Shown here one piece after another: positions 11,220 to 42,778 of a DNA stretch of 59,294 bases. Origin of the DNA: an uncultured Bacilli bacterium (GTDB taxonomy: Bacteria; Bacillota_I; Bacilli_A; RF39; UBA660); NCBI GenBank assembly GCA_947593955.1, contig CANQDV010000002.1:1-59294 (forward strand). Direction: 5' to 3'. The notes under the pieces are model-generated. The model saw only the letters and a program-made list of their open reading frames with translations. It was not told the origin of the DNA and searched no databases. The translations under genes were made by a program, and so were the position numbers. How positions within the stretch are numbered: position 1 is the stretch's first letter; the number at the start of each line of letters is the position of its first letter.

Positions 11220-12101
11220 TTATCTTTCTGTTAAATTCAATATTTCTAATATTCTATTTAAATCATTATTATTAACAAATGTAATTTCAATATGTTTACC
11301 CTTAATTTTTACCTTTGTTCCTAATTTATCACACAATTGTTCTTCTAAATCATGATATTCGTCTTTTTTATGGTTTTCTACATGATGCTTTTTTGATATT
11401 TCTTTTGACTTAGAAATATCTTCCAAATCTCTCACATTTAAATTTTCATCAACTATTTTTTTGGCTAAATCGATTATTTTATTTTTTTCTTCCATTTTGC
11501 TTAATATTCTAGCATGACTCATAGAAATTTTGTTTTCATTAATCATTTCTTTTACTTCTTCAGGTAATGATAATAACCCTAACATATTAGTAATATGACT
11601 TCTGCTTTTACCAAGTTTATTAGCAAGTTCTTCCTGAGTAATTGATAATTTTTCTACCAATTTTTTATATGCAGTAGCTTCTTCTATAGAGTTTAAGTTT
11701 TCTCGTTGCAAATTTTCAATTAGAGCAATCTCCATCATTTCTTCATCAGAAAAATTTCTAATAATGGCAGGAATTTTGGTAAGTCCCGCAATTGTTGAAG
11801 CCTTAACACGTCGCTCACCTGCAATTATTTCATATCCTTTGATACTTTTCTTTATTATAATTGGTTGAAATACACCATGTTCTTTAATAGATGCTGCTAA
11901 CTCATTTAGCTTTTCTTCATCAAAAACTTTCCTTGGTTGATAAGGATTAGGTCTTAATTCACTTATTTCTACTTCAATTATTTCTTCTTTTGGAGTAGAT
12001 TCAACTATTTGTTTTTCAAAACTATTAAAATCTAATTGTTCACTATTAAACAATTCTTCTAAGCCTTTACCAAGTGCTCTTCTTTTAGTTTGTTGTTCCA
12101 T
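11220..12101 (-). CDS. parB: Chromosome partitioning protein ParB/Spo0J
   Basis: ORF 11220-12110 (TTG); ATG 12101 preferred. N-terminal LGKGLEELF, PNPYQPRK box, CTP-pocket GERRVKAS, HTH GKSRSHITNMLGLL (Spo0J-like Arg). Overlaps the soj 3' end. Confidence 0.9.
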   Translation of the reverse strand: MEQQTKRRALGKGLEELFNSEQLDFNSFEKQIVESTPKEEIIEVEISELRPNPYQPRKVFDEEKLNELAASIKEHGVFQPIIIKKSIKGYEIIAGERRVKASTIAGLTKIPAIIRNFSDEEMMEIALIENLQRENLNSIEEATAYKKLVEKLSITQEELANKLGKSRSHITNMLGLLSLPEEVKEMINENKISMSHARILSKMEEKNKIIDLAKKIVDENLNVRDLEDISKSKEISKKHHVENHKKDEYHDLEEQLCDKLGTKVKIKGKHIEITFVNNNDLNRILEILNLTER

Positions 12102-12876
12102 TTCTTTCAATCACTTCCTTTGCTAAATTTAAATATGCTTCTGTACCTTTACTTTTAGGGTCATATGCTATTATAGGCTTTCCATGAGATGGCGCCTCAG
12201 TTAATCTTATAAGCCTAGGAATAATGGTATTATAAACTCTTTCTTTAAAATATTTTCTAATATCTTCTACTACTTCAAAACCAAGTTTTGTTCTTGAGTC
12301 TAGCATTGTCAATAATACTCCTTCTATATCTAGGTTAGGATTTAAATTTTTTTGTGCCATCATTATTGTATTTAATAACTGCATTATTCCTTCTAAAGCA
12401 AAAAATTCACATTGTACAGGTATTATTACTGAGTTTGATGCTGTTAAAGCATTTGTTGTAATCAATCCCAAAGATGGAGGACAATCAATAATAATAAAAT
12501 CAAATTGATCTTTTATAGTATCAAGTTTTGTTTTTAATTGCCTACCCTTTGAAAAACCTGGTTCATCTTTACTTTTTTCCATTAATTCTATATCTATCCC
12601 TGCTAAATTAATAGTTGCTGGTAATAAATATAAACGCTTATATCTTGTTCCAATTATAGCCTCAGTTATTTGGCATCTATCTATCAAAACATCATAAACA
12701 CTTTTATCAATATCTCCTTTATCAATGCCAATACCAGTAGTTGCATTACCTTGTGGATCTAAATCGATTAATAAAACATTTTTCCCCAATACAGCTAAAG
12801 ATGCTGAAAGATTAATACTTGTCGTTGTCTTTCCTACTCCACCTTTTTGATTTACCAAAGAAATTACCTTTCCCAT
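12085..12876 (-). CDS. soj: Chromosome partitioning ATPase ParA/Soj
   Basis: 263 aa; deviant Walker A NQKGGVGKTT; ParA fold motifs DCPPSLG. Confidence 0.95.
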   Translation of the reverse strand: MGKVISLVNQKGGVGKTTTSINLSASLAVLGKNVLLIDLDPQGNATTGIGIDKGDIDKSVYDVLIDRCQITEAIIGTRYKRLYLLPATINLAGIDIELMEKSKDEPGFSKGRQLKTKLDTIKDQFDFIIIDCPPSLGLITTNALTASNSVIIPVQCEFFALEGIMQLLNTIMMAQKNLNPNLDIEGVLLTMLDSRTKLGFEVVEDIRKYFKERVYNTIIPRLIRLTEAPSHGKPIIAYDPKSKGTEAYLNLAKEVIERNGTTN

Positions 12877-13030: not shown

Positions 13031-14056
13031 TTAATTTTTTTCAATTTCTATGATAAATCTATGTTTACTTTCTAAATCTAATTCATCATTTTTTACTTTA
13101 TATCCTTTTTCTTCAATTTGTTTTAGGACATTTCTAACCATATCTAAACAATCGTTAAAATCACTTTGATTAATCTTTTTTAATCCCTCAAAAGAATAAT
13201 ATTTTTCATCTTCTGTTAAGTCCAACAACTCAACATCTGTTTTTTCATTTTTTATATCAGCTTTTGAACTTTCTTTCTTTTCTTTTTTAGCTTCGTCTTC
13301 TTTAATCATATTTTTTACAATACTTTCAAAATCAGAAGCTGAAAAATCTATATCGTTTAATTTATCATCTACTTCATTTAACTTATTGTCTTGATTTAAT
13401 GTTTCGAAAGGCATAGAAGGTATTTCTTTTTTAGATTCTTCTTCTAATATGCTATCAACATTATTTCTATCTTTTATTAACTCTTCAAATTCTTTAACAG
13501 ATAAACGTTTTTCCATAATAATATCAGCCAACTTGTCACGTTCATCTTCATCTTCAATATTTAATAAACTACGGGCATGTCTTTCTGATATTTTTTCATT
13601 TAATAATGCATCTTGAATTTTATTTGATAAAGTTAATAAACGTAATTTGTTAGAAACAGCTGATTGTGATTTACCCATCGTTTTCGCTAACTCTTCTTGT
13701 GTCATACTATCTATATCGAGAATTTTTTGATATGTTCTAGCTTCTTCTATAGGAGTTAAATCTTTTCTCTGCAAGTTTTCTATCAATGCCACTTTAGAGC
13801 TTTCTTTATCATCTAAATTCTTTATTATAGCTGGAATTTTAGTAAGTCCTGCCATTGTGGATGCTTTATATCTTCGTTCTCCAGCAATTATTTCATATTT
13901 AGTACCTATTTTTCTTACAATTATTGGCTGTATTACTCCATGCTCTCTTATTGATAAAGCTAGTTCTTTTAAAGCCTTTTCATCAAAAACTTCTCTAGGT
14001 TGAAATCTATTAGGTATAATATCATCTAAGTATAAATAAACAATTTCATTTTCCAT
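13031..14056 (-). CDS. noc: Nucleoid occlusion protein Noc (ParB paralogue), atypical N- and C-termini
   Basis: 341 aa; IPNRFQPR box, GERRYKAS. HTH GKSQSAVSNKLRLL matches the Noc-type recognition helix (Gln and Lys where ParB has Arg and His/Met). Position between soj and rsmG as in Bacillus. TAGGAGTG RBS fixes the start. Confidence 0.85.
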   Translation of the reverse strand: MENEIVYLYLDDIIPNRFQPREVFDEKALKELALSIREHGVIQPIIVRKIGTKYEIIAGERRYKASTMAGLTKIPAIIKNLDDKESSKVALIENLQRKDLTPIEEARTYQKILDIDSMTQEELAKTMGKSQSAVSNKLRLLTLSNKIQDALLNEKISERHARSLLNIEDEDERDKLADIIMEKRLSVKEFEELIKDRNNVDSILEEESKKEIPSMPFETLNQDNKLNEVDDKLNDIDFSASDFESIVKNMIKEDEAKKEKKESSKADIKNEKTDVELLDLTEDEKYYSFEGLKKINQSDFNDCLDMVRNVLKQIEEKGYKVKNDELDLESKHRFIIEIEKN

Positions 14057-14951: not shown

Positions 14952-16803
14952 TATTTTTCCTCTTTAAATATACCATTAACATTGTAATATCACTAGGATT
15001 AACTCCACTAATACGCATTGCTTGTCCAATTGATGTTGGTCTTATTTCTGATAATTTTTGTTTTGCTTCTTTCGCAATATTATGAATTTGCTCATAATCT
15101 ATATTATCTGGAATCTTAATATTTTCATATGCTGCCATTTTTTCAGCTTCTTTATTAGCTTTAACAATATATCCTTCATATTTTACGTTAATATTAACTT
15201 GTTCTAAGACATCTTCATCGTAAGATAAATCAATAAATTTATTTAAATCTTTAATATTTATTTCAGGTCTTTTTAACAAATCATACAAAGAGGTTGTTAC
15301 AACAATTTTAGGTGTATTAATACTTTCTAAATATTGATTATTTTCATTATTAGGATTCAATAAATATTCTTTCAAATCTTTAATTAATTTATTAATATTT
15401 TTTCTTTTATTAGTCAATTTATTATATTGAGTATTACTTATAAGACCAATACTTTTACCATAATCCATAAGTCTTAAGTCAGCATTATCATGTCTTAATA
15501 ATAATCTATATTCCGCACGTGATGTTAATAATCGATAAGGATCAATCACTCCTTTAGTAACTAAATCATCAATAAGTACTCCAATATAAGCTTCATTTCT
15601 TTTTAAAACTAGACCTTCTTTGCCATCTAATTTTAATACTGCATTTATTCCTGCCATTAATCCTTGGCATGCTGCTTCTTCATAACCACTAGTACCATTT
15701 ATTTGACCAGCAGTATACAACCCCGAAATTATTTTTGTTTCTAATGTTGGTTTTAACTGTGTAGAATCAATTGCATCATATTCAATAGCATAAGCATACT
15801 TATTAATAACTGCATTTTCTAATCCTGGAAGACTATGAACCATTTTTTCTTGAATGTCATGAGGCATACTAGTAGAAAATCCTTGAATATAAATATCATC
15901 ATAAAAAATACTCTCTGGCTCTAAAAATAATTGATGCCTTTCTTTATCACTAAATCGTACAATTTTATCTTCAATTGATGGACAATATCTAGGTCCTACT
16001 CCTTCGACATATCCCCCATACATACTTGATTTATCAAGATTATCTCTAATTATCTGATGAGTAACAGGAGTTGTATATATTAAATAACAAGGTATTTGTT
16101 TAGTAACATCATAATGATTTTCATTATAAAAAGAAAAGAAATGTTCAACATCATCTCCAGGCTGTAATTCTGCCTTACTAAAATCAATACTTGATTTTTC
16201 AATTCTAGGAGGAGTTCCTGTTTTTAATCTTTTTATTCTAAAACCTAATTTTTTTAAATTATCGCTTAAAAATTTTGATGGTCTTTCATCATGTGGTCCA
16301 CTTGATATTTTAGTAGAACCATATAAAACAGTACCTTTTAAATAAGTTCCTGTCGTTAAAACCACAGCTTTACTACTTATTTTATCTCCGTTTTCTAAAA
16401 TAACACCTTTAATAACATCATTATCAATTATTAAGTCTTCTACCATTGCTTCTAAAATTGTAAGATTTTTTTCACTCTCTAAAGTTTTAAGCATTTCTTT
16501 TTTATAAGTTATTTTATCTGCTTGTGCTCTTAAAGCTCTAACTGCTGGTCCTTTTTTGGTATTAAGCATTTTCATTTGGAGAAAGCTCTTATCAATATTA
16601 TTTGCCATTTCTCCACCTAAAGCTGCTATTTCTCTTACCACAATTCCTTTGGCAGGACCACCTATTGATGGATTACATGGCATATCAGCAATATTATTTT
16701 TATTACTAGTTATAAGTAAAGTATTATGATTTGTTCTAGCACCTACCAATGCTGCTTCACATCCAGCATGCCCTCCACCGACAACAATAATATCATAGTT
16801 CAT
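14944..16803 (-). CDS. mnmG: tRNA uridine 5-carboxymethylaminomethyl modification enzyme MnmG
   Basis: ORF to 16812 (GTG); ATG 16803 lies 8 nt after AGGAAG. FAD motif [16 protein letters not shown]; about 620 aa. Confidence 0.95.
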
Positions 16804-18190: not shown

Positions 18191-18218
18191 ATTATAACAT
18201 ATTTATTATTTTTTCAAG
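18191..18218 (-). promoter_or_regulatory. Sigma-A type promoter with extended -10 for mnmE-mnmG-rsmG
   Basis: Minus strand (C)TTGAAA - 15/16 nt - TGtTATAAT, between the jag terminator and the mnmE RBS. Confidence 0.5.
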
Positions 18219-20112: not shown

Positions 20113-20169
20113 AAAAACCTCTCACAATTAAAGTATATAACAAAAAAGCCACTGTTTCCAGTGGAATTA

Positions 20170-20289
20170 TTATACTAGTTTTTTACGTCCTTTTTTTCTT
20201 CTATTTTTTATTATATTAGTTTCCATCCTAGCAAAAAAACCTTGCTTCTTAGCTTTTTTTCTATTATTTGGTTGATAAGTTCTTTTCAT
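20170..20289 (-). CDS. rpmH: 50S ribosomal protein L34 (not in ORF track, 39 aa)
   Basis: Hand translation gives [53 protein letters not shown]. Classical rpmH-rnpA arrangement opposite dnaA. Confidence 0.93.
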
Positions 20290-20318
20290 AATTCCACCTC
20301 CAAACTAAAATCTACATT

Positions 20319-20348
20319 ATTATAATAATATTTAGTATATTTTGTCAA
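20319..20348 (-). promoter_or_regulatory. Sigma-A promoter of rpmH operon
   Basis: Minus strand TTGACA (20348-20343) - 18 nt - TATAAT (20324-20319). Confidence 0.6.
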
Positions 20349-20618
20349 ATAGTTTTTAACTCATTAATATTTTTATTTATTTAAATATTTATCAACATAA
20401 TTCACAACCTTGTTTAAAACTTTATTAATATATGTTATTAAAAATTTGTGGAAAATGTGCAAAACTAATAAAATCCTTATATATTTTGAATTGTATTTGT
20501 TGAAAAAGTTGTTAATAACCTATGGAAAACTTTTTTTTTATCTTTTATCTTTATTTTTTCAACAGGATAAGTTACAATGAAAGTGTATTAAATATTCTTT
20601 TCTTGGGGGGAAGTGATA
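20349..20618. promoter_or_regulatory. oriC part 1: DnaA-box cluster upstream of dnaA
   Basis: One-mismatch DnaA boxes TTATCAACA (20389-20397) and TGTGGAAAA (20447-20455). Weaker two-mismatch boxes at 20398-20406 and 20521-20529. The gene-orientation switch is here. Confidence 0.6.
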
Positions 20619-22001
20619 ATGATGGATACATCTGTTTTATGGTCGCAAATTTTAAATAAAATTAAAACTGAAATAAATTCATTATCATTTCAAACTTGGT
20701 TTGAAGAAACAGAACTTTATGATTTAAATAACGGAGTTGCCAAAATAATAGTGCCATATGCTATTCATAAAAATCATATTTTAAATAACTATAACGATAT
20801 TTTAAAAAATTGTTTTTTAGAATTTACTGGTAATAATGTGGAATTAGAGCTTTTCTTAAAAGAAGATATAATAGAGGAAAATAACACTGAATCAAATAAC
20901 ATTGAACCAAAAGTAGAAAATAGCAACACCAATAATATTTATAATAATGCATATATAAATTCTAATTTAAATTCTAAATATACATTTGATAATTTTATAG
21001 TTGGAAATAGTAATAAATTTGCTCATGCAGCTGCTTTAGCGGTTGCTGAAAATCCTGGGAAAACATATAATCCTTTATTTATATATGGAAACAGTGGGTT
21101 AGGTAAAACGCATTTAATGCACGCAATAGGTAATTATATTGATAAACATTCTGATAAAAAAGTTTTATATGTAACTAGTGAACAATTTGTTTCAGACTTT
21201 ATAGGTATTAATAAAAAAGATGAAAATGGTACTAATTTTAGTTATGTTGACTTCTTTAAACAAAAATATCGCAACATTGATGTTTTAATAATAGACGATA
21301 TTCAGTATTTAGGTGGTGCAACAGAAACGCAAAAAGAGTTTTTCCACACCTTTAATACTTTATATGGTGACAATAAACAAATTATTATTTCATCAGACAG
21401 ATCACCAGATGATTTAAAAATATTAGAAGATCGTCTTCGAACTCGATTCTGTTGGGGATTATCTGTTGATATTTTTCCTCCCGATTTTGAATTAAGGGTA
21501 GCGATATTAAAAAAAAGAATTGCTGGAGAAGCAATCAACAAATATATACCTGATTCAGTAATCGAATATATGGCTTCAAATTTAGGAAGCGATATTCGAA
21601 TGTTGGAAGGTGCAGTAACAAGATTAGTGGCATATTCCACAATTATGGGTTCAGAAATAGATTTAAATCTTGCTATCGAAGCCCTTAAAGATTATATTAA
21701 CAAAGGAATTAGTGAAAAAAACGACGTAAACAAAATTCAAAAAGTTGTTGCGGAATATTTTCAAATTTCCACAGATGACTTGAAATCAAAAAAAAGAAAT
21801 TCCAACATTTCTTTTCCCAGACAAATTGCTATGTACCTGTGTAGAAAATTAACTGATGAATCATTTCCTAAAATAGGAATAGAATTTGGTGGGAAAGACC
21901 ATTCAACAGTTATGCATTCTTGTGAAAAAATAGAAAGAGAAATTTCAGTAAATAAAGATCTAGCGGATACAATAAAAAAATTAGAAAATGAAATAAAATA
22001 A
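20619..22001 (+). CDS. dnaA: Chromosomal replication initiator protein DnaA
   Basis: ORF from GTG 20613; ATG 20619 lies 8 nt after GGGGGG. Walker A GNSGLGKTHL, AAA+ box DDIQYL, C-terminal HTH DHSTVMH. Confidence 0.97.
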   Translation: MMDTSVLWSQILNKIKTEINSLSFQTWFEETELYDLNNGVAKIIVPYAIHKNHILNNYNDILKNCFLEFTGNNVELELFLKEDIIEENNTESNNIEPKVENSNTNNIYNNAYINSNLNSKYTFDNFIVGNSNKFAHAAALAVAENPGKTYNPLFIYGNSGLGKTHLMHAIGNYIDKHSDKKVLYVTSEQFVSDFIGINKKDENGTNFSYVDFFKQKYRNIDVLIIDDIQYLGGATETQKEFFHTFNTLYGDNKQIIISSDRSPDDLKILEDRLRTRFCWGLSVDIFPPDFELRVAILKKRIAGEAINKYIPDSVIEYMASNLGSDIRMLEGAVTRLVAYSTIMGSEIDLNLAIEALKDYINKGISEKNDVNKIQKVVAEYFQISTDDLKSKKRNSNISFPRQIAMYLCRKLTDESFPKIGIEFGGKDHSTVMHSCEKIEREISVNKDLADTIKKLENEIK

Positions 22002-23352: not shown

Positions 23353-23799
23353 ATGAAATATGAAATCAATGAAGAAACAATGGCTATAATACCTATTGGC
23401 TTAAACAAAACGAAAGTTGTAGAATTAAGAAAGGAATACACAATACCTTCATCAACATTTCAAATAATGGAAGAAAACTGTGAATATTATGGCAGTACAT
23501 TTGATGGTAGAATAAAAGCAGCTCAAAAAATACTTAGTTTTAGTTACAAAATACCATTAATTGTCGAGGAGTCTTCTCAAATAATTTTCTTTCCTACAAA
23601 GTCATCTTCAGCAAATGATTGTGCTTGGATTAATCACAATTTTGTGGAAAAAAGAATAAAAAATGGTAAAAATACAAAAGTTGTATTTCAAAATGGTTCA
23701 GAATATGAATTTAAAATTTCAAAGCTTTCTTTTGAAAATCAATTATTAAGAGCTGGCATGCTTGAATCTACACTTTCAAAAAGATTAAATAAAAAATAA
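23353..23799 (+). CDS. comK: ComK-family competence transcription factor-like protein
   Basis: 148 aa. Blocks align with B. subtilis ComK as recalled: YYGSTFDGRIKA vs FFGSSYAGRKAG; KIPLIVEESSQIIFFPTKSSSANDCAWINHNFV vs KPPIMVDPSNQIFLFPTLSSTRPQCGWISHVHV; SFENQLLRAGML vs SFENQVYRTAWL. Confidence 0.75.
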   Translation: MKYEINEETMAIIPIGLNKTKVVELRKEYTIPSSTFQIMEENCEYYGSTFDGRIKAAQKILSFSYKIPLIVEESSQIIFFPTKSSSANDCAWINHNFVEKRIKNGKNTKVVFQNGSEYEFKISKLSFENQLLRAGMLESTLSKRLNKK

Positions 23800-26996: not shown

Positions 26997-29549
26997 ATGG
27001 ATACAGAAAATAAAAATGAAGAATTTGATGAAGAACTTGAAAGAATTAATATTGATAATAACAATTTTAATGGATACTTTCATGAAAGAGATAGTTTAGC
27101 AGAAAATAATATTGTAGATGAGGTTAAGTCATCATTTCTAGAATATTCAATGAGTGTTATTGCTTCACGTGCCTTACCAGATTTAAGAGATGGATTGAAA
27201 CCTGTACATCGTCGTATTTTATGGTCAATGTACGAATGTGGTTATACTCCAGATAAACCTCATAGAAAATCAGCTACGACAGTTGGTTATGTTATGGGAC
27301 ATTATCATCCACATGGAGATTCTTCAATATATGAAGCAATGGTTAGAATGGCTCAAGATTTTAATCAAAGGTATATGTTAATAGATGGCCATGGCAACTT
27401 TGGTAATATTGAAGGTGATGGCGCAGCAGCAATGCGTTATACCGAATCAAAATTATCAAAAATTTCCTTAGAGTTATTACGTGATATCAATAAAGATACT
27501 GTTGATATGGATGATAACTTTGATGTGACTAGTAAAGAACCAAAAGTATTGCCTTCGAGATTTCCTAATATTTTAGTTAATGGTACAATGGGTATTGCTG
27601 TCGGTATGGCTACCAACATTCCACCACATAATTTAGGTGAAGTAATAGATGGTTGTGTAGCGTATATAGATAATCCAGACATTGATACTCTTGGGTTAAT
27701 GCAATACATTAAGGGACCAGATTTTCCTACAGGGGGTATAATTCTTGGCAATTCTGGTATAAAAACAGCATATGAAACAGGTAGAGGAACTATTACTATT
27801 CGTAGTAAAGCTACTATTGAAGATGCTGGAACACATAGTAATATAATAATTACTGAAGTTCCGTATGGTATAAATACTATGGAATTAAAAGATAAAGTAG
27901 CTGAGCTTGTACATACTAAAGTAATTGATGGTATTGCTGATTATCATACTGATCTTAAAGATGGAGTAAAGATAACGATAACGTTAAAGCGTGAAGCAAA
28001 TCCACAAGTAGTATTAAATAATCTTTATAAGCATACTAATTTTCAAGTACAATATGGAATTATTTTTCTAATGTTAGATGGTATAACACCTAGAACTTTA
28101 GGATTAAAAGCTGTTATCTCCAAATATATTGATTATCAAAAAGAAGTTATAATAAGAAGAACTAAATTTGATTTAGCTAGAGATGAAAAAAGAGTTCATA
28201 TCTTAGAAGGATACAAGATAGCGCAAGATAATATTGATGAAGTTGTAAAAATCATTAGAAATGCAGAAAGCGATGTTGAAGCTAAAGAAAAATTAATGTC
28301 TAGATTTAATTTATCTGAAGTACAAACAGATGCTATATTAGAATTAAAATTACGTCGTTTAACTGGTCTTGAACGAGATAAAATTGAAGCAGAATTACAA
28401 CAATTGTTAGTAGAAATAGAAGAGTTAAAATCAATTTTAGCCTCTGAACAAAAAGTATTAGATATTATTAAGAAGGAATTATTAGAAATAAAGAGTAAAT
28501 ATGGCGACGATAGGAAAACTGAAATTGATATGACAGCAATTGATTATATTGAAGATGAATCTTTAATTCCAGTAGAAGAATCAATTATTACACTTACAAA
28601 TAAGGGATATATAAAACGTGTACCATCTAATACTTATAAAACGCAAAATAGAGGTGGAGTAGGTATAAAAGGTATGGGTACTAACGAAGAAGATTTTCCT
28701 GAAAAATTAGTAACTATGAGAACCCATGATTACTTATTGTTATTTTCAAATTATGGTAAGGTATATCGTATAAAAGGTTATACTATTCCAGAATTTAATC
28801 GTCAGTCAAAAGGATTGCCAATAATTAATTTGTTACCTATAGAAAAAGATGAAAAAATAACATCAATGAATGTTATTAAATATGATAACGAGGAAAATAA
28901 ATACTTAGTATTTGTTACAAAGAAGGGATTAATTAAAAGAACTGCTATTTCTGAATTTGAAAATATCAGAAATAATGGAAAAAAAGCAATAGTGCTAAAA
29001 GAAGACGACGAATTAATTGCAGTAAGAAAGACAACAGGTGATAAAGAAATTATTATTGGAAGCAGTAATGGTCGTTTAGTAAGATTTGATGAAACAGAAG
29101 TTCGTGTTATGGGAAGAGGAAGCGCTGGTGTTCGTGGAATAAACTGTGATAATGCTTATGTAGTCGGTGCCGAAGTAGTTGAAGAAAATCATCAAGTATT
29201 AGTTGTAACAGAAAATGGATATGGTAAGCGTACACCAATCGGTGATTATCGTTTAACTCATAGAGGTAGCAAAGGTGTTAAGACATTAAATATCACAGAG
29301 AAAAACGGTAAAATAGTTGCTCTTAGAACTGTTGTTGGCGATGAGGATTTAATGATTATTACTAGCAGTGGTATCGTAATTAGGATATCAATTAATCAAA
29401 TATCTGAGTTAAGTAGAAATACACAAGGAGTTAGATTAATTAATTTGAAAAATGATCAAAAAGTAGCAACAGCTAATACTATAGAACATTTGGAAGAGGA
29501 AACTATTAGCTTGGATAATAATGATATTAACGAAGAACAAGGAGAATAA
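26997..29549 (+). CDS. gyrA: DNA gyrase subunit A
   Basis: 850 aa; catalytic Tyr motif AAMRYTE, QRDR-like [18 protein letters not shown]-terminal beta-pinwheel repeats. Confidence 0.97.
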
Positions 29550-29569
29550 AACTTCTTGTTCTTTATTTT
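29533..29569 (+). terminator. Probable terminator of gyrA
   Basis: AAGAACAAGGAG / CUUCUUGUUCUU stem spanning the stop codon, followed by UAUUUUA. Confidence 0.5.
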
Positions 29570-29584
29570 ATTTCCCGGGAAATA
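29569..29584. promoter_or_regulatory. Noc-binding site NBS-1 (perfect TATTTCCCGGGAAATA)
   Basis: Exact 16-bp palindrome identical to the published NBS consensus. The GC core is exceptional in this AT-rich DNA. Confidence 0.85.
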
Positions 29585-29608
29585 TTTTTAGAACGTTTGT
29601 TTGATTTT

Positions 29609-29624
29609 TATTTCCCGGGAAATA
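29609..29624. promoter_or_regulatory. Noc-binding site NBS-2 (perfect TATTTCCCGGGAAATA)
   Basis: Exact 16-mer (the palindrome extends to 18 bp, 29608-29625). Centre is 40 bp from NBS-1. Confidence 0.85.
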
Positions 29625-29668
29625 ATTTATATTAAAAACAATAATATATTATATTAATCTAAAATATA

Positions 29669-29684
29669 TGTTTCACGTGAAACA
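29669..29684. promoter_or_regulatory. ParB-binding centromere site parS-1 (perfect TGTTTCACGTGAAACA)
   Basis: Exact 16-mer equal to the Firmicute parS consensus (the palindrome extends to 20 bp, 29667-29686). Lies 10 bp upstream of the putative ffs -35. Confidence 0.88.
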
Positions 29685-29693
29685 TAAAAAAAC

Positions 29694-29722
29694 TTGCTAT
29701 TTATTAGAAAATATATTATCTT
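29694..29722 (+). promoter_or_regulatory. Putative promoter of ffs
   Basis: TTGCTA - 17 nt - TATCTT. This places the transcription start at about 29729, where the SRP RNA closing stem begins. Confidence 0.45.
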
Positions 29723-29726
29723 ATAT

Positions 29727-29803
29727 ATAGCGCAATAAATATATTGGAACCAGGTCAGGATCGGAAGATAGCAGCCTTAACAGTCAATGTTTATGTGCGC
29801 TAT
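29727..29803 (+). ncRNA. ffs: Small (4.5S-like, about 77 nt) signal recognition particle RNA
   Basis: Domain IV core CCAGGUCAGGAUCGGAAGAUAGCAGCC (E. coli 4.5S has CCAGGUCAGGUCCGGAAGGAAGCAGCC) with a GGAA tetraloop. Closing stem AUAGCGCA/UGCGCUAU, then UUUUUA. Confidence 0.85.
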
Positions 29804-29820
29804 TTTTATAGGGTGATATT

Positions 29821-30255
29821 ATGAATATTGATGAATATTTTATGAATATAGCATTATCTGAAGCAAAGAAAGCTTATGATAAAAACGAAATACCTGTAGG
29901 TGCCGTTATTGTAGAAAATGGGAAAATAATAGCTAAAGCATTTAATAAGAAAAATTCTACGAAAGTTGTTTGTAATCATGCTGAAATGATAGCAATTATA
30001 AAAGCATGCCATGTTAATAAAGATTGGAGATTAAATGAATGTACTATTTACATCACAATGGAACCTTGTCCAATGTGTGCTAGTGCAATACAACAAGCTC
30101 GAATCAAAAGAGTTGTTTATGGGTGCAGTTCTAATAATATTGAAAATAGTAAATTAATTAATGATATTTTAAATAATTCAGCTGAAATAGAAAATGGTAT
30201 ACTTGAAAATGAATGTTCTTCCCTTATAAGAAAATTTTTTAATGGCATAAGATAA
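29821..30255 (+). CDS. tadA: tRNA-specific adenosine deaminase
   Basis: 144 aa; zinc motifs HAEM...PCPMCASA; AGGGTGA RBS. Confidence 0.92.
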   Translation: MNIDEYFMNIALSEAKKAYDKNEIPVGAVIVENGKIIAKAFNKKNSTKVVCNHAEMIAIIKACHVNKDWRLNECTIYITMEPCPMCASAIQQARIKRVVYGCSSNNIENSKLINDILNNSAEIENGILENECSSLIRKFFNGIR

Positions 30256-30271
30256 TGTTTCACGTGAAACA
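30256..30271. promoter_or_regulatory. parS-2 (perfect TGTTTCACGTGAAACA)
   Basis: Exact 16-mer. The 22-bp palindrome 30253-30274 starts with the tadA TAA stop codon. Confidence 0.88.
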
Positions 30272-30290
30272 TTAAATATTGTTTTAAAAT

Positions 30291-30306
30291 TATTTCCCGG
30301 GAAATA
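30291..30306. promoter_or_regulatory. NBS-3 (perfect TATTTCCCGGGAAATA)
   Basis: Exact 16-mer. Centre is 35 bp from the parS-2 centre. Confidence 0.85.
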
Positions 30307-30377
30307 TTTTTTTATATTTAATAAAGAATAAAGCTATAAAACAATAATTTTATATTGCAATGAAAGAAAAAAATAGT

Positions 30378-30478
30378 ATTGATTATTTAACTATTTATAG
30401 AAAAATTAAATAATAAACTTTGATTAAAAAAGTTGCTGTTAATTTTTTTTACAACACTATGCAAAAAAAATAAATTAA
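30378..30478 (+). pseudogene. Decayed duplicate of the dnaX 5' end
   Basis: ATTGATTATTTAACTATTTATAGAAAAATTAAATAATAAACTTTGAT aligns with the dnaX start ATGGGTTATTTAGCTATTTATAGAAAATATAGACCAACAAACTTTGAT. ATG has become ATT, and there are in-frame TAA TAA codons and indels. Confidence 0.65.
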
Positions 30479-30495
30479 TTTATATTTATTTTTTT

Positions 30496-30585
30496 TAGTA
30501 GAAAATTTAACATTAATTTAAAAACTACATATTTGGAAAATAATATTTTCCCTTTATAAAAAAATTCTTTAATATTATAAGATAA
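30496..30585 (+). pseudogene. Decayed duplicate of the tadA 3' end
   Basis: TTCCCTTTATAAAAAAATTCTTTAATATTATAAGATAA aligns with the tadA end TTCCCTTATAAGAAAATTTTTTAATGGCATAAGATAA. Similarity fades upstream. Confidence 0.6.
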
Positions 30586-30601
30586 TGTTTCACGTGAAAC
30601 A
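30586..30601. promoter_or_regulatory. parS-3 (perfect TGTTTCACGTGAAACA)
   Basis: Exact 16-mer within the 22-bp palindrome 30583-30604. Confidence 0.88.
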
Positions 30602-30671
30602 TTAAATATTAGTTTAAAAAAAATATTAATATTATTTTTTATAGATTAATAACGAACATATGTTTTAAAAT

Positions 30672-30687
30672 TATTTCCCGGGAAATA
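30672..30687. promoter_or_regulatory. NBS-4 (perfect TATTTCCCGGGAAATA)
   Basis: Exact 16-mer, 75 bp upstream of the dnaX ATG. Confidence 0.85.
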
Positions 30688-30761
30688 TTTTTGAGATAAT
30701 TAATAAAGAATAAAGGTTATAAAACATTAATTTCATGTTATAATGGAAATGGAGGGATAGT

Positions 30762-32420
30762 ATGGGTTATTTAGCTATTTATAGAAAATATAGACCAACA
30801 AACTTTGATGAAGTATCTGGTCAAAAAGTAGTTGTTGATATTCTTAAAAATGCCATAAAAAATGATAAATTAGCTCATGCTTACCTTTTTGCTGGACCAA
30901 GGGGTACTGGAAAAACAAGTATAGCGAAGATCTTGGCAAGAACGATTAATTGTGAATGCGATAATACTACAAATCCTTGTGAACAATGTAAAAGCTGTAT
31001 TAATTCTAAATCAAAAGAATGTGTAGATATAATAGAAATTGATGCTGCTTCTAATAATGGTGTAGATGAAATTAGGGAATTAAAAAGTAAAATAAATATC
31101 GTTCCATCTTTTTTAAAGTACAAAATATATATTATTGATGAGGTTCACATGCTATCTATTGGTGCATTTAATGCTTTATTAAAAACTTTAGAGGAACCCC
31201 CATCACACGTTATTTTTATTCTAGCCACAACAGAGTTACAAAAAATTCCTACAACGATTTTGTCTAGATGTCAAATTCTTGAGTTTAAAAAAATATCTCC
31301 AAAAGATATGAAAGACAAAATTAGTTATATTTGCAAAACCGAAAATATAAAAATTGAAGATAACGCAATTGATGAAATTATTGATTATTCTGATGGATGT
31401 ATGCGAGATGCATTGAGCTTATTAGAAAAGGCTAACTCATATACAGAGAATGTTATAAGTGCTAGTGATGTTAGAAACATTTGTGGAAAAACATCAAAGG
31501 AAGAATTACAAACAATAATTGATTTAATTAGAAATGGCGAAAAAGAAAATTTAATAAATAAAATAAATGAATTATATTTATCGGATTATGATTTAATATA
31601 TGTTGTAGAAGATATTATAAAAGAATTAGAACAAAAAATCTTTGATAATAATAATTCACAAAATGAAATTTATCAACTAATAACTTTATTTGTTAAACTA
31701 TATGATAAAATGAAAACAACTTCTGTAAATAAAAAGATAATTTTAGAGGTTGAATTAATTAATTATTTGAATGAAAATAATAAAAATATTTCCCGGGAAA
31801 TATTTTTAAAACAAAAGTTCGATAATATAGAGAAAGAAGAAACACAAATTTTAAATAAAAATAATGATGATGATAAAATTGTTGAAAAAAAAGTTTCAAA
31901 AGAAATTGTAAACACTTTTGATAATGATAATTTCAAAAAAATTAGAATTAATAATACTTTTGTCTCTGCATCAAAAGAAATTCTAAATAACATAAAAAAC
32001 AAATGGAATGATTTAAAAAATAATGCTTTTGATAAAAATAATGGAGCCATGATTTGTAATTTATTAGATGGTATACCTGTAGCAGCAAGTACTGATTATT
32101 TATTAATTTCTTTTCCATATTCTTCTATGTCTGATAATATTAATGAAGATTATGCTAATTTTCAAGAAATTTTAAATCAATATTTGCAAATTAGCACAAA
32201 GATTGTTGCCATTTCAAATGAGGAATGGAACAAATATAAATCTGAATATATTAAAAATTTAGGAAATAATATAAAATATGAGTTAATTGAAGACGAATAT
32301 ATTAAAAAAGAAAATAGTAATAAACAAGAAACAATTATGCCAGAAAAAAATGATAATTCTGATAATATAGAAAATAAAGTATTGGAATTATTTGATTCTG
32401 AATTTGTAAAAATAGAATAA
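30762..32420 (+). CDS. dnaX: DNA polymerase III subunit gamma/tau
   Basis: 552 aa; Walker A GPRGTGKTS, Zn module CECDNTTNPCEQCKSC, Walker B IIDEVHML, sensor TILSRCQ. Low-complexity C-terminal half. Confidence 0.95.
   Translation: MGYLAIYRKYRPTNFDEVSGQKVVVDILKNAIKNDKLAHAYLFAGPRGTGKTSIAKILARTINCECDNTTNPCEQCKSCINSKSKECVDIIEIDAASNNGVDEIRELKSKINIVPSFLKYKIYIIDEVHMLSIGAFNALLKTLEEPPSHVIFILATTELQKIPTTILSRCQILEFKKISPKDMKDKISYICKTENIKIEDNAIDEIIDYSDGCMRDALSLLEKANSYTENVISASDVRNICGKTSKEELQTIIDLIRNGEKENLINKINELYLSDYDLIYVVEDIIKELEQKIFDNNNSQNEIYQLITLFVKLYDKMKTTSVNKKIILEVELINYLNENNKNISREIFLKQKFDNIEKEETQILNKNNDDDKIVEKKVSKEIVNTFDNDNFKKIRINNTFVSASKEILNNIKNKWNDLKNNAFDKNNGAMICNLLDGIPVAASTDYLLISFPYSSMSDNINEDYANFQEILNQYLQISTKIVAISNEEWNKYKSEYIKNLGNNIKYELIEDEYIKKENSNKQETIMPEKNDNSDNIENKVLELFDSEFVKIE
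31787..31802. promoter_or_regulatory. NBS-5 inside dnaX coding sequence
   Basis: Exact TATTTCCCGGGAAATA embedded in a 28-bp perfect palindrome (31781-31808) that encodes NKNISREIFLK. Confidence 0.8.
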
Positions 32421-42052: not shown

Positions 42053-42283
42053 CATATTGATTATGACGTTGATGGAAAGAACTATAATTTAATATCATAG
42101 AGAACTTTTGATGGTGGAAAGAAAGTATAATTAATTATAGGAAATGGTTCCAGAGTCTTTTGGCTGATATTTAGGTCAATTCGTTTGCAAACGTTACAGG
42201 CAAAGAGTGCATAGATTTTTCTATGAAGTAAGGTGGTAACACGGTAATATTCGTCCTTAGAGATAATATTATCGTGTTTTTTT
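42053..42283 (+). promoter_or_regulatory. T-box riboswitch leader, Met (AUG) specifier
   Basis: Stem I with a GA motif (UGAUGGAAAGAAC), AGAGA bulge and distal loop. Specifier loop GGAA-AUG-G at 42144-42146. T-box AAGGUGGUAACACGG (42230-42244). 12-bp terminator 42240-42251/42265-42276 followed by U7. Confidence 0.85.
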
Positions 42284-42292
42284 GGAGGTATT

Positions 42293-42778
42293 ATGGCTAG
42301 ATTTTTTGAAAAAATTAGTTATGAGCAATTTACTAAGGATATATGTGATGACAAAGAATTATATCAAGGTTATAATTTGCCTAAAAGGAGTACAAAAAAT
42401 AGTGCTGGATATGATTTTTTTGCTATAACTAATTTAGTGTTACATAAGGGAGAAAGTATAAAAATTCCTACTGGTGTAAAAGTAGGTATGGATGATGATG
42501 AGGTATTATTAATTGTTGTAAGAAGTAGTATGGGATTTAAGTATAATATAAGGATGTGCAATCAAGTTGGAGTTATAGATAGTGATTATTATAATAATAT
42601 GAATAATGAAGGACATATTTGGATTAAATTACAAAATGAAGGAAACAGTGATTTTGAAATCAAACAAGGTGATGCTATTTGCCAAGGAATTTTTGTTAAA
42701 TATTTGACTGTTGATTATGAACAGACCAATGAAAACATAAGAACTGGTGGCATAGGATCCACTAATAGGGGTGATTAA
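42293..42778 (+). CDS. dut: dUTP diphosphatase (trimeric dUTPase family)
   Basis: 161 aa; motifs SAGYDFFA, GVIDSDYYN, C-terminal RTGGIGSTN. Confidence 0.8.
   Translation: MARFFEKISYEQFTKDICDDKELYQGYNLPKRSTKNSAGYDFFAITNLVLHKGESIKIPTGVKVGMDDDEVLLIVVRSSMGFKYNIRMCNQVGVIDSDYYNNMNNEGHIWIKLQNEGNSDFEIKQGDAICQGIFVKYLTVDYEQTNENIRTGGIGSTNRGD

Follow-up and report, generated by a model that had tools for sequence, protein, structure and literature searches.

Interleaved parS and Noc-binding sites form a conserved array near the presumed replication origin of uncultured gut Bacilli

Genes and sites between gyrA and dnaX

The stretch of DNA analysed here (59,294 bases, called the window below) belongs to contig CANQDV010000002.1 in the assembly GCA_947593955.1 of an uncultured Bacilli bacterium. 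Its gyrA-dnaX interval carries a mixed cluster of parS, the site of the ParB protein, and of the Noc-binding site (NBS), recognized by the ParB paralogue Noc, and this cluster is considered here together with the two proteins and with the corresponding loci of other genomes. An exact match scan of the whole window reproduced the sites reported in the original prediction, namely three copies of the parS 16-mer TGTTTCACGTGAAACA (29669, 30256, and 30586) and five copies of the NBS 16-mer TATTTCCCGGGAAATA (29569, 29609, 30291, 30672, and 31787), all eight lying inside 2.25 kb (29569-31802), and the spacings of 40, 60, 35, and 86 bp that it had given between site centres are correct. The two palindromes had been taken for canonical parS and NBS, and this is borne out by their identity to the cores of the oligonucleotides crystallized with ParB and Noc (PMC7383237); the parS copies match the 16-bp palindrome consensus TGTTNCACGTGAAACA, and the NBS core, ATTTCCCGGGAAAT, is contained in the 16-bp palindrome. 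Dinucleotide-preserving shuffles lead one to expect 0.00 (parS) and 0.07 (NBS) matches at up to two mismatches. When three mismatches were tolerated, a single extra weak parS-like match appeared in the whole 59,294 bases, at 18210, and no further NBS was found in the window outside the cluster. The hexamer CCCGGG is confined to the five NBS, as had been predicted for both central hexamers, but the same is not true of CACGTG, which also occurs at 15516 and 27166, with no parS-like context there. No parS lies in or adjoins parB within the window.

The GC skew flips its sign at about 20 kb (the cumulative minimum), beside dnaA (20613-22001), so that some 9-11.7 kb separate the presumed origin from the cluster on its right. 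The presumed oriC region upstream of dnaA (20113-20612) was placed by this minimum, next to a gene with a DnaA family match, because a DnaA-box scan (29 matches vs. 21.7 expected) is uninformative in DNA so rich in AT. Following the sequence rightward from gyrA, which ends at 29549, NBS-1 (29569-29584) comes directly after the terminator-like hairpin of that gene (29532-29564); NBS-2 (29609-29624, an exact 16-mer) and parS-1 (29669-29684) follow, the latter being the centre of the 18-bp palindrome ATGTTTCACGTGAAACAT and lying 35 nt 5' of ffs, the gene of the small signal recognition particle RNA (29719-29816, forward strand; Rfam RF00169, 68 bits), which is itself within the cluster. The tRNA adenosine deaminase gene tadA (29821-30255, forward strand; NCBIfam NF008113) has sites on both flanks. 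On its far side is parS-2 (30256-30271), which had been thought to start in the tadA stop codon; the 16-mer begins at the first base after that codon (TAA, 30253-30255), and it is the 18-bp palindrome that overlaps the stop, by 1 nt. NBS-3 (30291-30306) is 35 bp from parS-2, centre to centre, and is followed by parS-3 (30586-30601, an exact 16-mer) and by NBS-4 (30672-30687), about 75 nt 5' of the start codon of dnaX. The latter gene, encoding DNA polymerase III gamma/tau (30762-32420, forward strand; NCBIfam NF004046, 466 bits), carries the intragenic NBS-5 (31787-31802) in the codons for N-I-S-R-E-I-F, in a variable linker past domain III.

The distance between parS-1 and the -35 element proposed for ffs (TTGCTA, 29694-29699) is 9 nt, and the previously given value of 10 bp has to be corrected. 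A scan of the window for consensus promoters returned matches at or below shuffle expectation, and the proposed ffs promoter (8/12) was not called. Two trivial readings of the palindromes were considered and rejected: they are not simply the restriction sites that their cores resemble (SmaI, PmlI), since conservation spans 16-24 nt, and they are not terminator hairpins, having no loop and no T-tract.

A repeat search and alignment showed that the 506-bp spacer between tadA and dnaX is a tandem duplication of about 330-384 bp. Copy A (30172-30404, forward strand) contains the real 3' end of tadA, parS-2, and NBS-3, followed by the decayed remains of a dnaX promoter and 5' end, whose pseudo-start (30373-30404) is still 91% identical to 30757-30788. 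Copy B (30502-30788, forward strand) contains a decayed tadA 3' end (30502-30585) and then parS-3 and NBS-4, with a 51-bp insertion sitting between these two sites, and ends with the promoter region and start of the real dnaX. This insertion and the 79% identity explain why the duplication was missed when Tandem Repeats Finder (TRF) was run on the window. The eight sites are accordingly not eight independent events, because parS-2 with NBS-3 and parS-3 with NBS-4 are two copies of one duplication. Between these copies the site columns are identical throughout (32/32), as compared with 79.3% identity in the 203 other aligned columns (P = 6e-4). A similar picture is seen inside dnaX, where the NBS sits at an identical codon offset in six genomes, those of the window and five relatives. 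These six share the 24-nt palindrome AAAATATTTCCCGGGAAATATTTT at 100% identity, all six wobble positions included, against 41-45% for the 40 nt that flank it, and the encoded linker is otherwise unconserved. Selection acts on the site DNA itself, and the arrays grow by tandem duplication of units containing one NBS and one parS.

ParB and a helix-less Noc orthologue

The window contains the genes of both cognate paralogues, as originally predicted. In this family, specificity is set by positions 173, 179, 184, and 201, which are R, T, A, G in ParB and Q, K, K, R in Noc, and a single lysine at position 179 or 184 has been reported to be sufficient for NBS specificity (Jalal et al., 2020). The product of parB (spo0J; 11220-12101, reverse strand), a gene adjoining parA (soj; 12085-12876, reverse strand), has the parS-type residues R, M, S, S at these positions, R173 being the residue invariant in parS binders and position 201 tolerating a small polar residue. 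It also possesses the N-terminal ParA-interaction motif LGKGLEELF, keeps the motifs GERRV and ENLQR for binding cytidine triphosphate (CTP), and finds its best PDB match in B. subtilis Spo0J (218 bits, vs. 181 for Noc).

The second paralogue (341 residues; 13031-14056, reverse strand) has Q, K, T, R at the same positions, which agrees at three of the four with the NBS-type set Q173, K179, K184, and R201, and this combination is invariant in 14 homologues. It carries the CTP-binding motifs GERRY and ENLQR, of which GERR and ENLQR are invariant in 14 family members, together with a DNA-binding domain that is almost invariant and a Noc-type C-terminal domain. In a PDB search, the protein scored 214 bits with the Noc of Geobacillus and 166-178 with Spo0J, and its last approximately 45 residues match only TIGR04285, at positions 211-255 (15-21 bits). 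The gene order rsmG(gidB)-noc-parA-parB is that of B. subtilis, and this order is the classical ancestral origin gene cluster of Firmicutes (PMC8136486). We call this protein a Noc orthologue because of its specificity residues, PDB scores, gene order, C-terminal match, and CTP motifs. The plasmid protein KorB (in the PDB, "Transcriptional repressor protein KorB") aligns with both ParB and the Noc orthologue at E ~1e-13.

Canonical Noc begins with a 10-residue amphipathic membrane-targeting helix followed by alpha2 and an 8-residue loop, before the N-terminal domain (PMC8429893). This N-terminus was described as "extremely" conserved in all the homologues examined by Adams et al., the helix is needed for Noc function in B. 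subtilis, and the truncated NocN-delta-10 is non-functional there (PMC4331003). The Noc orthologue of the window starts with MENEIVYLYLDDIIPNRFQPR, its fourth residue being aligned with the third of the engineered NocN-delta-26; alpha1 and alpha2, i.e., the whole N-terminal region of 26 residues, are absent. An in-frame TAG lies 15 nt 5' of the ATG, which is preceded by a good ribosome-binding site (AGGAG). The same N-terminal start is found in all 14 aligned full-length homologues (316-351 residues) and in variants of 487-491 residues, so the membrane-targeting helix is missing from every family member examined, and the AlphaFold2 (AF2) model of the Noc orthologue has no helix before beta1. 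In a hydrophobic-moment scan, which is a weak test, the top matches fell in folded helices of the C-terminal and DNA-binding domains and no other cationic amphipathic segment stood out. The "membrane-tether hub" of the original prediction is not supported in this part, because the known membrane-targeting element is absent.

The Noc orthologue of the window has instead an acidic, poorly conserved insert of about 100 residues (199-296) separating its DNA-binding domain from the C-terminal domain, disordered in the AF2 model. A semi-conserved linker motif, YPRI[ND]F[DE][DE]LLKNL, is shared by the Noc orthologue and the homologues P0002-P0042, and a conserved EIETLDL...NYYSF leads into the C-terminal domain; in the variants of 487-491 residues (P0064, P0069), the linker of about 270 residues contains several D-x-LL-like repeats. 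These linker motifs may represent a partner-binding motif.

The array in other genomes

Seven relatives, 49-67% identical in DnaX, were fetched through their DnaX homologues, and the gyrA-dnaX interval of each was compared with that of the window. All seven are syntenic (dnaA-dnaN-comK-like-recF-gyrB-gyrA-ffs-tadA-dnaX-ybaB-recR), with ffs between gyrA and tadA in every one, and all seven keep the same two sequences as a mixed parS/NBS cluster at the same locus; the original prediction, which different cognate sequences in related genomes would have overturned, is favoured by this outcome. Elsewhere in the 10 kb on either side only one degenerate parS-like sequence was found, with two mismatches (locus L005, 15723). 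An NBS just 3' of gyrA is also present in three relatives (L001, L004, L007), and in another (L006) there are five tandem units of about 125 bp, in each of which an NBS and a parS are 35-36 bp apart.

A scan of 185,579 species-representative genomes in 8-kb blocks, on either strand, for GTTTCACGTGAAAC and ATTTCCCGGGAAAT separated by 13-73 nt found at least 119 blocks, which belong to about 116 metagenome-assembled genomes (MAGs). As shown by tblastn with proteins of the window, the sites lie in the gyrA-ffs-tadA-dnaX interval in 117 of the 119 listed blocks, that is, in all those with flanking genes, the other two (L009, L026) having no recognizable gene. DnaX identity to the window goes down to 36% among the matches listed, and the array-bearing genomes include two closed chromosomes (OZ006970.1, of 1,517,539 bp, and CP091739.1, of 1,526,647 bp). 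The listed matches all come from uncultured gut MAGs of human, mouse, rabbit, chicken, and ruminant samples, and no cultured model Firmicute is found among them. These low-GC gut Bacilli are labelled Bacilli bacterium, Erysipelotrichaceae, Mycoplasma sp., Tenericutes, Clostridium sp. CAG:710, Ca. Onthousia, and Ca. (Allo)scybalousia, and NCBI taxonomy places Ca. Alloscybalousia only in "Bacilli incertae sedis"; we tentatively take the clade to be of the RFN20/RF39 type. MAGs carrying Muribaculaceae or Bacteroidaceae titles (L016, L023, L056, L070, L072, L091, L098, L101) contain a Bacilli-type gyrB-gyrA-tadA-dnaX region with GyrA 59-72% identical to that of the window, and these titles likely result from mis-binning or mislabelling. 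Although first taken for something peculiar to a single genome, the cluster characterizes a large clade of uncultured bacteria.

The window and 126 loci were pooled into a set of 127 sequences (about 124 genomes, 1.05 Mb). Their gyrA-dnaX intergenic zones contain 850 sites, to which 31 NBS inside dnaX and three parS inside tadA are to be added; the 710 kb of flanking DNA contain 12 (11 NBS and one parS). In total, 884 sites are in or next to the interval vs. 12 in the flanks, and sites are enriched approximately 150-fold in the cluster within this origin-proximal DNA. Some of the sites away from the array are isolated exact NBS with identical flanks (AAATTATTTCCCGGGAAATAATTT; L034:7609, L044:6147, L059:6872, L063:1139, L068:1402, L105:7849, L107:141), and in five of these loci (L034, L044, L059, L068, L105) they sit 2-4 kb past recR, which suggests that NBS have another conserved location away from the array.

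Each locus has 2-21 sites, often strictly alternating between NBS and parS, and among neighbours within 300 bp, NBS-parS pairs (489) outnumber parS-parS (158) and NBS-NBS (53) pairs. Mismatches are present in 44 of 402 NBS, compared with 149 of 501 parS. Using TRF, arrays with a site core in the repeated unit were found at 39 loci, 20 of which have both cores in it, with unit periods of 62-474 bp and up to 10.7 copies, indicating repeated lineage-specific amplification. Many MAG contigs start or stop inside the array (L008, L013, L024, L026, L031, L032, L054, L085, and others), and in some MAGs it is split over two contigs (L013/L031, L026/L076, L078/L108); short-read assemblies of the origin region evidently break at its repeats.

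The distances between the centres of neighbouring NBS and parS in the 127 sequences have a minimum of 21 bp, a mode of 35-36 bp, and peaks at approximately 26, 36, 47, 57.5, 68, and 78 bp. After near-identical spacers had been collapsed, which left 288 classes, the NBS-parS spacing followed a period of 10.5 bp (R = 0.224, Rayleigh p about 5e-7), a value reached by none of 5000 jittered nulls. The mean phase is about 4.4 bp, or 0.4 turn, placing neighbours about half a turn apart. No such phasing was detected for parS-parS (n = 84, R = 0.06) or NBS-NBS (n = 30, R = 0.055) neighbours, whose samples are smaller, and this lack of phasing in homotypic neighbours speaks against a general effect of A-tracts. 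Alternation and phasing together point to a putative co-occupancy of the array by ParB and Noc.

Several other features of the region may be recorded here. Between dnaN and recF, the window has an open reading frame (ORF) of 148 codons (23353-23799, forward strand), the syntenic counterparts of which match Pfam ComK (PF06338) in all seven relatives; the inside of the dnaA-dnaN-recF-gyrB block is an unusual position for a comK-like gene. In one relative, a contig from the JGI, dnaA is present as two ORFs of 259 and 169 residues (L007:155-1525), which reflects a frameshift, a pseudogene, or else a faulty assembly. A T-box leader (42060-42261, forward strand; Rfam RF00230, 120 bits), conserved in relatives, lies 5' of the ORF at 42293.

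Possible functions of the array

The individual parts of this arrangement are known from other systems. The NBS 16-mer is identical to that of the Noc-NBS systems of B. subtilis and Staphylococcus aureus (Wu et al., 2009; Adams et al., 2015; Jalal et al., 2021), and the Noc protein is an orthologue by synteny and best matches, with Q173, K179, R201, the CTP motifs, and the Noc-type C-terminal domain. The clade protein differs in being helix-less at its N-terminus, in having a disordered insert of 100-270 residues before the C-terminal domain, and in scoring below the TIGR04285 cutoff. The arrangement of sites differs as well, in agreement with the original prediction: a single locus near the origin holds the densely set NBS of the clade, at distances of 21-90 bp from parS, and in the known systems the sites are scattered, with about 70 in B. 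subtilis and 41 in S. aureus (PMC4331003, PMC5540599). Chromosomal ParABS systems with origin-proximal parS clusters, e.g., that of Caulobacter (Livny et al., 2007; PMC7333895), likewise have consensus parS concentrated within about 10 kb of oriC, ParA and ParB encoded nearby, and a ParB with parS-type residues and a ParA-interaction motif. Unlike them, the clade has its parS interleaved, often in strict alternation, with the sites of a second paralogue, and the parB of the window is devoid of parS. The sopC centromere of the F plasmid consists of 12 repeats of 43 bp with a SopB site in each. The array of the clade resembles sopC in that a short unit with a palindromic ParB-family site has been amplified in tandem; it differs in being chromosomal, in having two sites for two paralogues per unit, and in a copy number and unit length that vary by species. 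KorB, the CTP clamp repressor of RK2, is similar in being a ParB-family clamp with palindromic sites (OB) near promoters, with weak homology, but neither KorA-like partners nor a fixed operator-promoter geometry are evident in the clade. No prior description of mixed parS/NBS arrays was found in open-access papers and bioRxiv. What is new is the way in which known parts are combined, in an alternating, phased, and amplified array for two paralogues, one of them a Noc that lacks the helix.

We consider that the cluster probably represents a conserved composite origin-proximal loading array for two CTP-dependent clamps of the ParB family, at a distance of about 10 kb from oriC. Direct observations exist for what the sites are, how they cluster, and how well they are conserved, as well as for the features of the proteins, the duplication history, and the phasing, and they strongly support a functional, selected, and clade-wide array of predicted loading sites for ParB and the Noc orthologue. 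ParB would nucleate on the parS sites and the Noc orthologue on the interleaved NBS, both would close as clamps and slide onto the shared flanking DNA, and one origin-proximal nucleoprotein complex would thus hold both paralogues. Clamp loading and co-spreading are established properties of the ParB/Noc family (PMC7053999, PMC8429893). The most likely course is that Noc, formerly devoted to nucleoid occlusion along the whole chromosome, has taken on a new function at the centromere or together with it, and its candidate jobs include marking or organizing the origin region, recruiting a partner via the linker, and modulating the spreading of ParB.

Other explanations can be put to the same data. 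Noc might act canonically at the origin, its clamps loading at the NBS, binding the membrane, and so tethering the centromere region with local nucleoid occlusion beside ParB. Both the NBS and an NBS-type Noc orthologue are indeed present, Noc is known to spread over 8-10 kb and to recruit DNA to the membrane (PMC5540599, PMC4331003, PMC8429893), and tethering could be indirect, via the conserved linker motif. The loss of the 26-residue region, bounded by an upstream stop and a good ribosome-binding site and common to the 14 homologues and the long variants, in a protein whose counterpart fails when deprived of only this helix, makes such a role unlikely, the more so as no substitute amphipathic segment stood out in the (weak) scan. 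It is quite improbable that the sites serve mainly as operators through which KorB-like clamps regulate ffs, tadA, and dnaX and couple the expression of these replication and translation genes to ParB/Noc occupancy: the sites do adjoin the presumed promoter regions of ffs and dnaX, their position relative to the three genes is kept in more than 100 genomes, and KorB aligns with both proteins, but the number, position, and spacing of sites vary too widely for a fixed operator-promoter geometry, many are hundreds of base pairs away from the nearest promoter, dnaX has one within its coding sequence, the promoters themselves were assigned from weak consensus matches, and the conserved location may only reflect the stable synteny of the origin.

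Tandem duplication of units containing both sites could also mean that only parS is functional and that the NBS are passengers of the duplicating unit, or mere roadblocks. This seems very improbable in view of the NBS that stay exact while their flanks decay, of the lone dnaX NBS that is perfect in six genomes, and of the NBS beside gyrA that is conserved without duplication; mismatches are, moreover, rarer in NBS than in parS, the DNA-binding domain of Noc is almost invariant, and the phasing is specific to NBS-parS neighbours. AT-rich, repeat-prone DNA and contigs ending in the array might bring to mind that the cluster arose by chance, belongs to a dispersed repeat or to a mobile element, or is an artefact of assembly, but the likelihood of this is negligible. 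The shuffles, the absence of further copies from the rest of the window, and the recurrence of the same locus in about 116 independently assembled MAGs, two closed chromosomes among them, have already refuted this reading; the original judgement that chance is not credible thus stands, and a generic dispersed repeat, named beforehand as the outcome that would overturn the prediction, is excluded by the scans of window and flanks.

Several points nevertheless weigh against the composite loading array. Position 184 of the Noc orthologue is T rather than K, and its TIGR04285 score (278 bits) is below the cutoff of 315. The disordered linker may still provide a link to the membrane or to division. 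The flanks of the relatives have about one NBS per 65 kb, similar to the overall density in B. subtilis, and chromosome-wide, dispersed binding of Noc may therefore persist in the clade. All array-bearing organisms are uncultured and represented by MAGs, and the restriction of the array to this clade is the result of a sample, not of a census. The phasing statistic is derived from related loci that were ascertained via the parS-NBS pattern itself. Finally, binding, clamp loading, co-occupancy, and the biological role are what we infer from these sequences.

Within the composite loading array, a more specific and more tentative proposal can be made, which we regard as possible, short of probable: having lost its membrane anchor in this large clade of gut Bacilli with small genomes, Noc would be a second centromere protein that co-assembles with ParB on alternating sites phased on opposite faces of the DNA, yielding a two-paralogue partition or origin complex with a stoichiometry set by the tandem amplification of NBS+parS units.

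The ParB/Noc pair is a textbook example of how a duplicated DNA-binding protein gains a new site and a new job, chromosome segregation in one case and nucleoid occlusion in the other, and the two proteins are the founding members of the CTP-switch clamps. The clade described here offers a natural case in which the loading sites of both paralogues are juxtaposed, long conserved, and amplified together, in the presence of a Noc deprived of the feature on which its known mechanism is based. It raises the question of whether two kinds of CTP clamps sharing a track collide, block each other's way, or co-operate, along with the questions of a membrane-independent role of Noc and of the growth of chromosomal centromeres by repeat amplification. 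In practical terms, the arrays are an annotation marker for the origin region in MAGs of this clade and a frequent cause of contig breaks. If the proposal of Noc as a second centromere protein is true, it would mean a direct physical or functional coupling of two different CTP clamps on a single DNA track.

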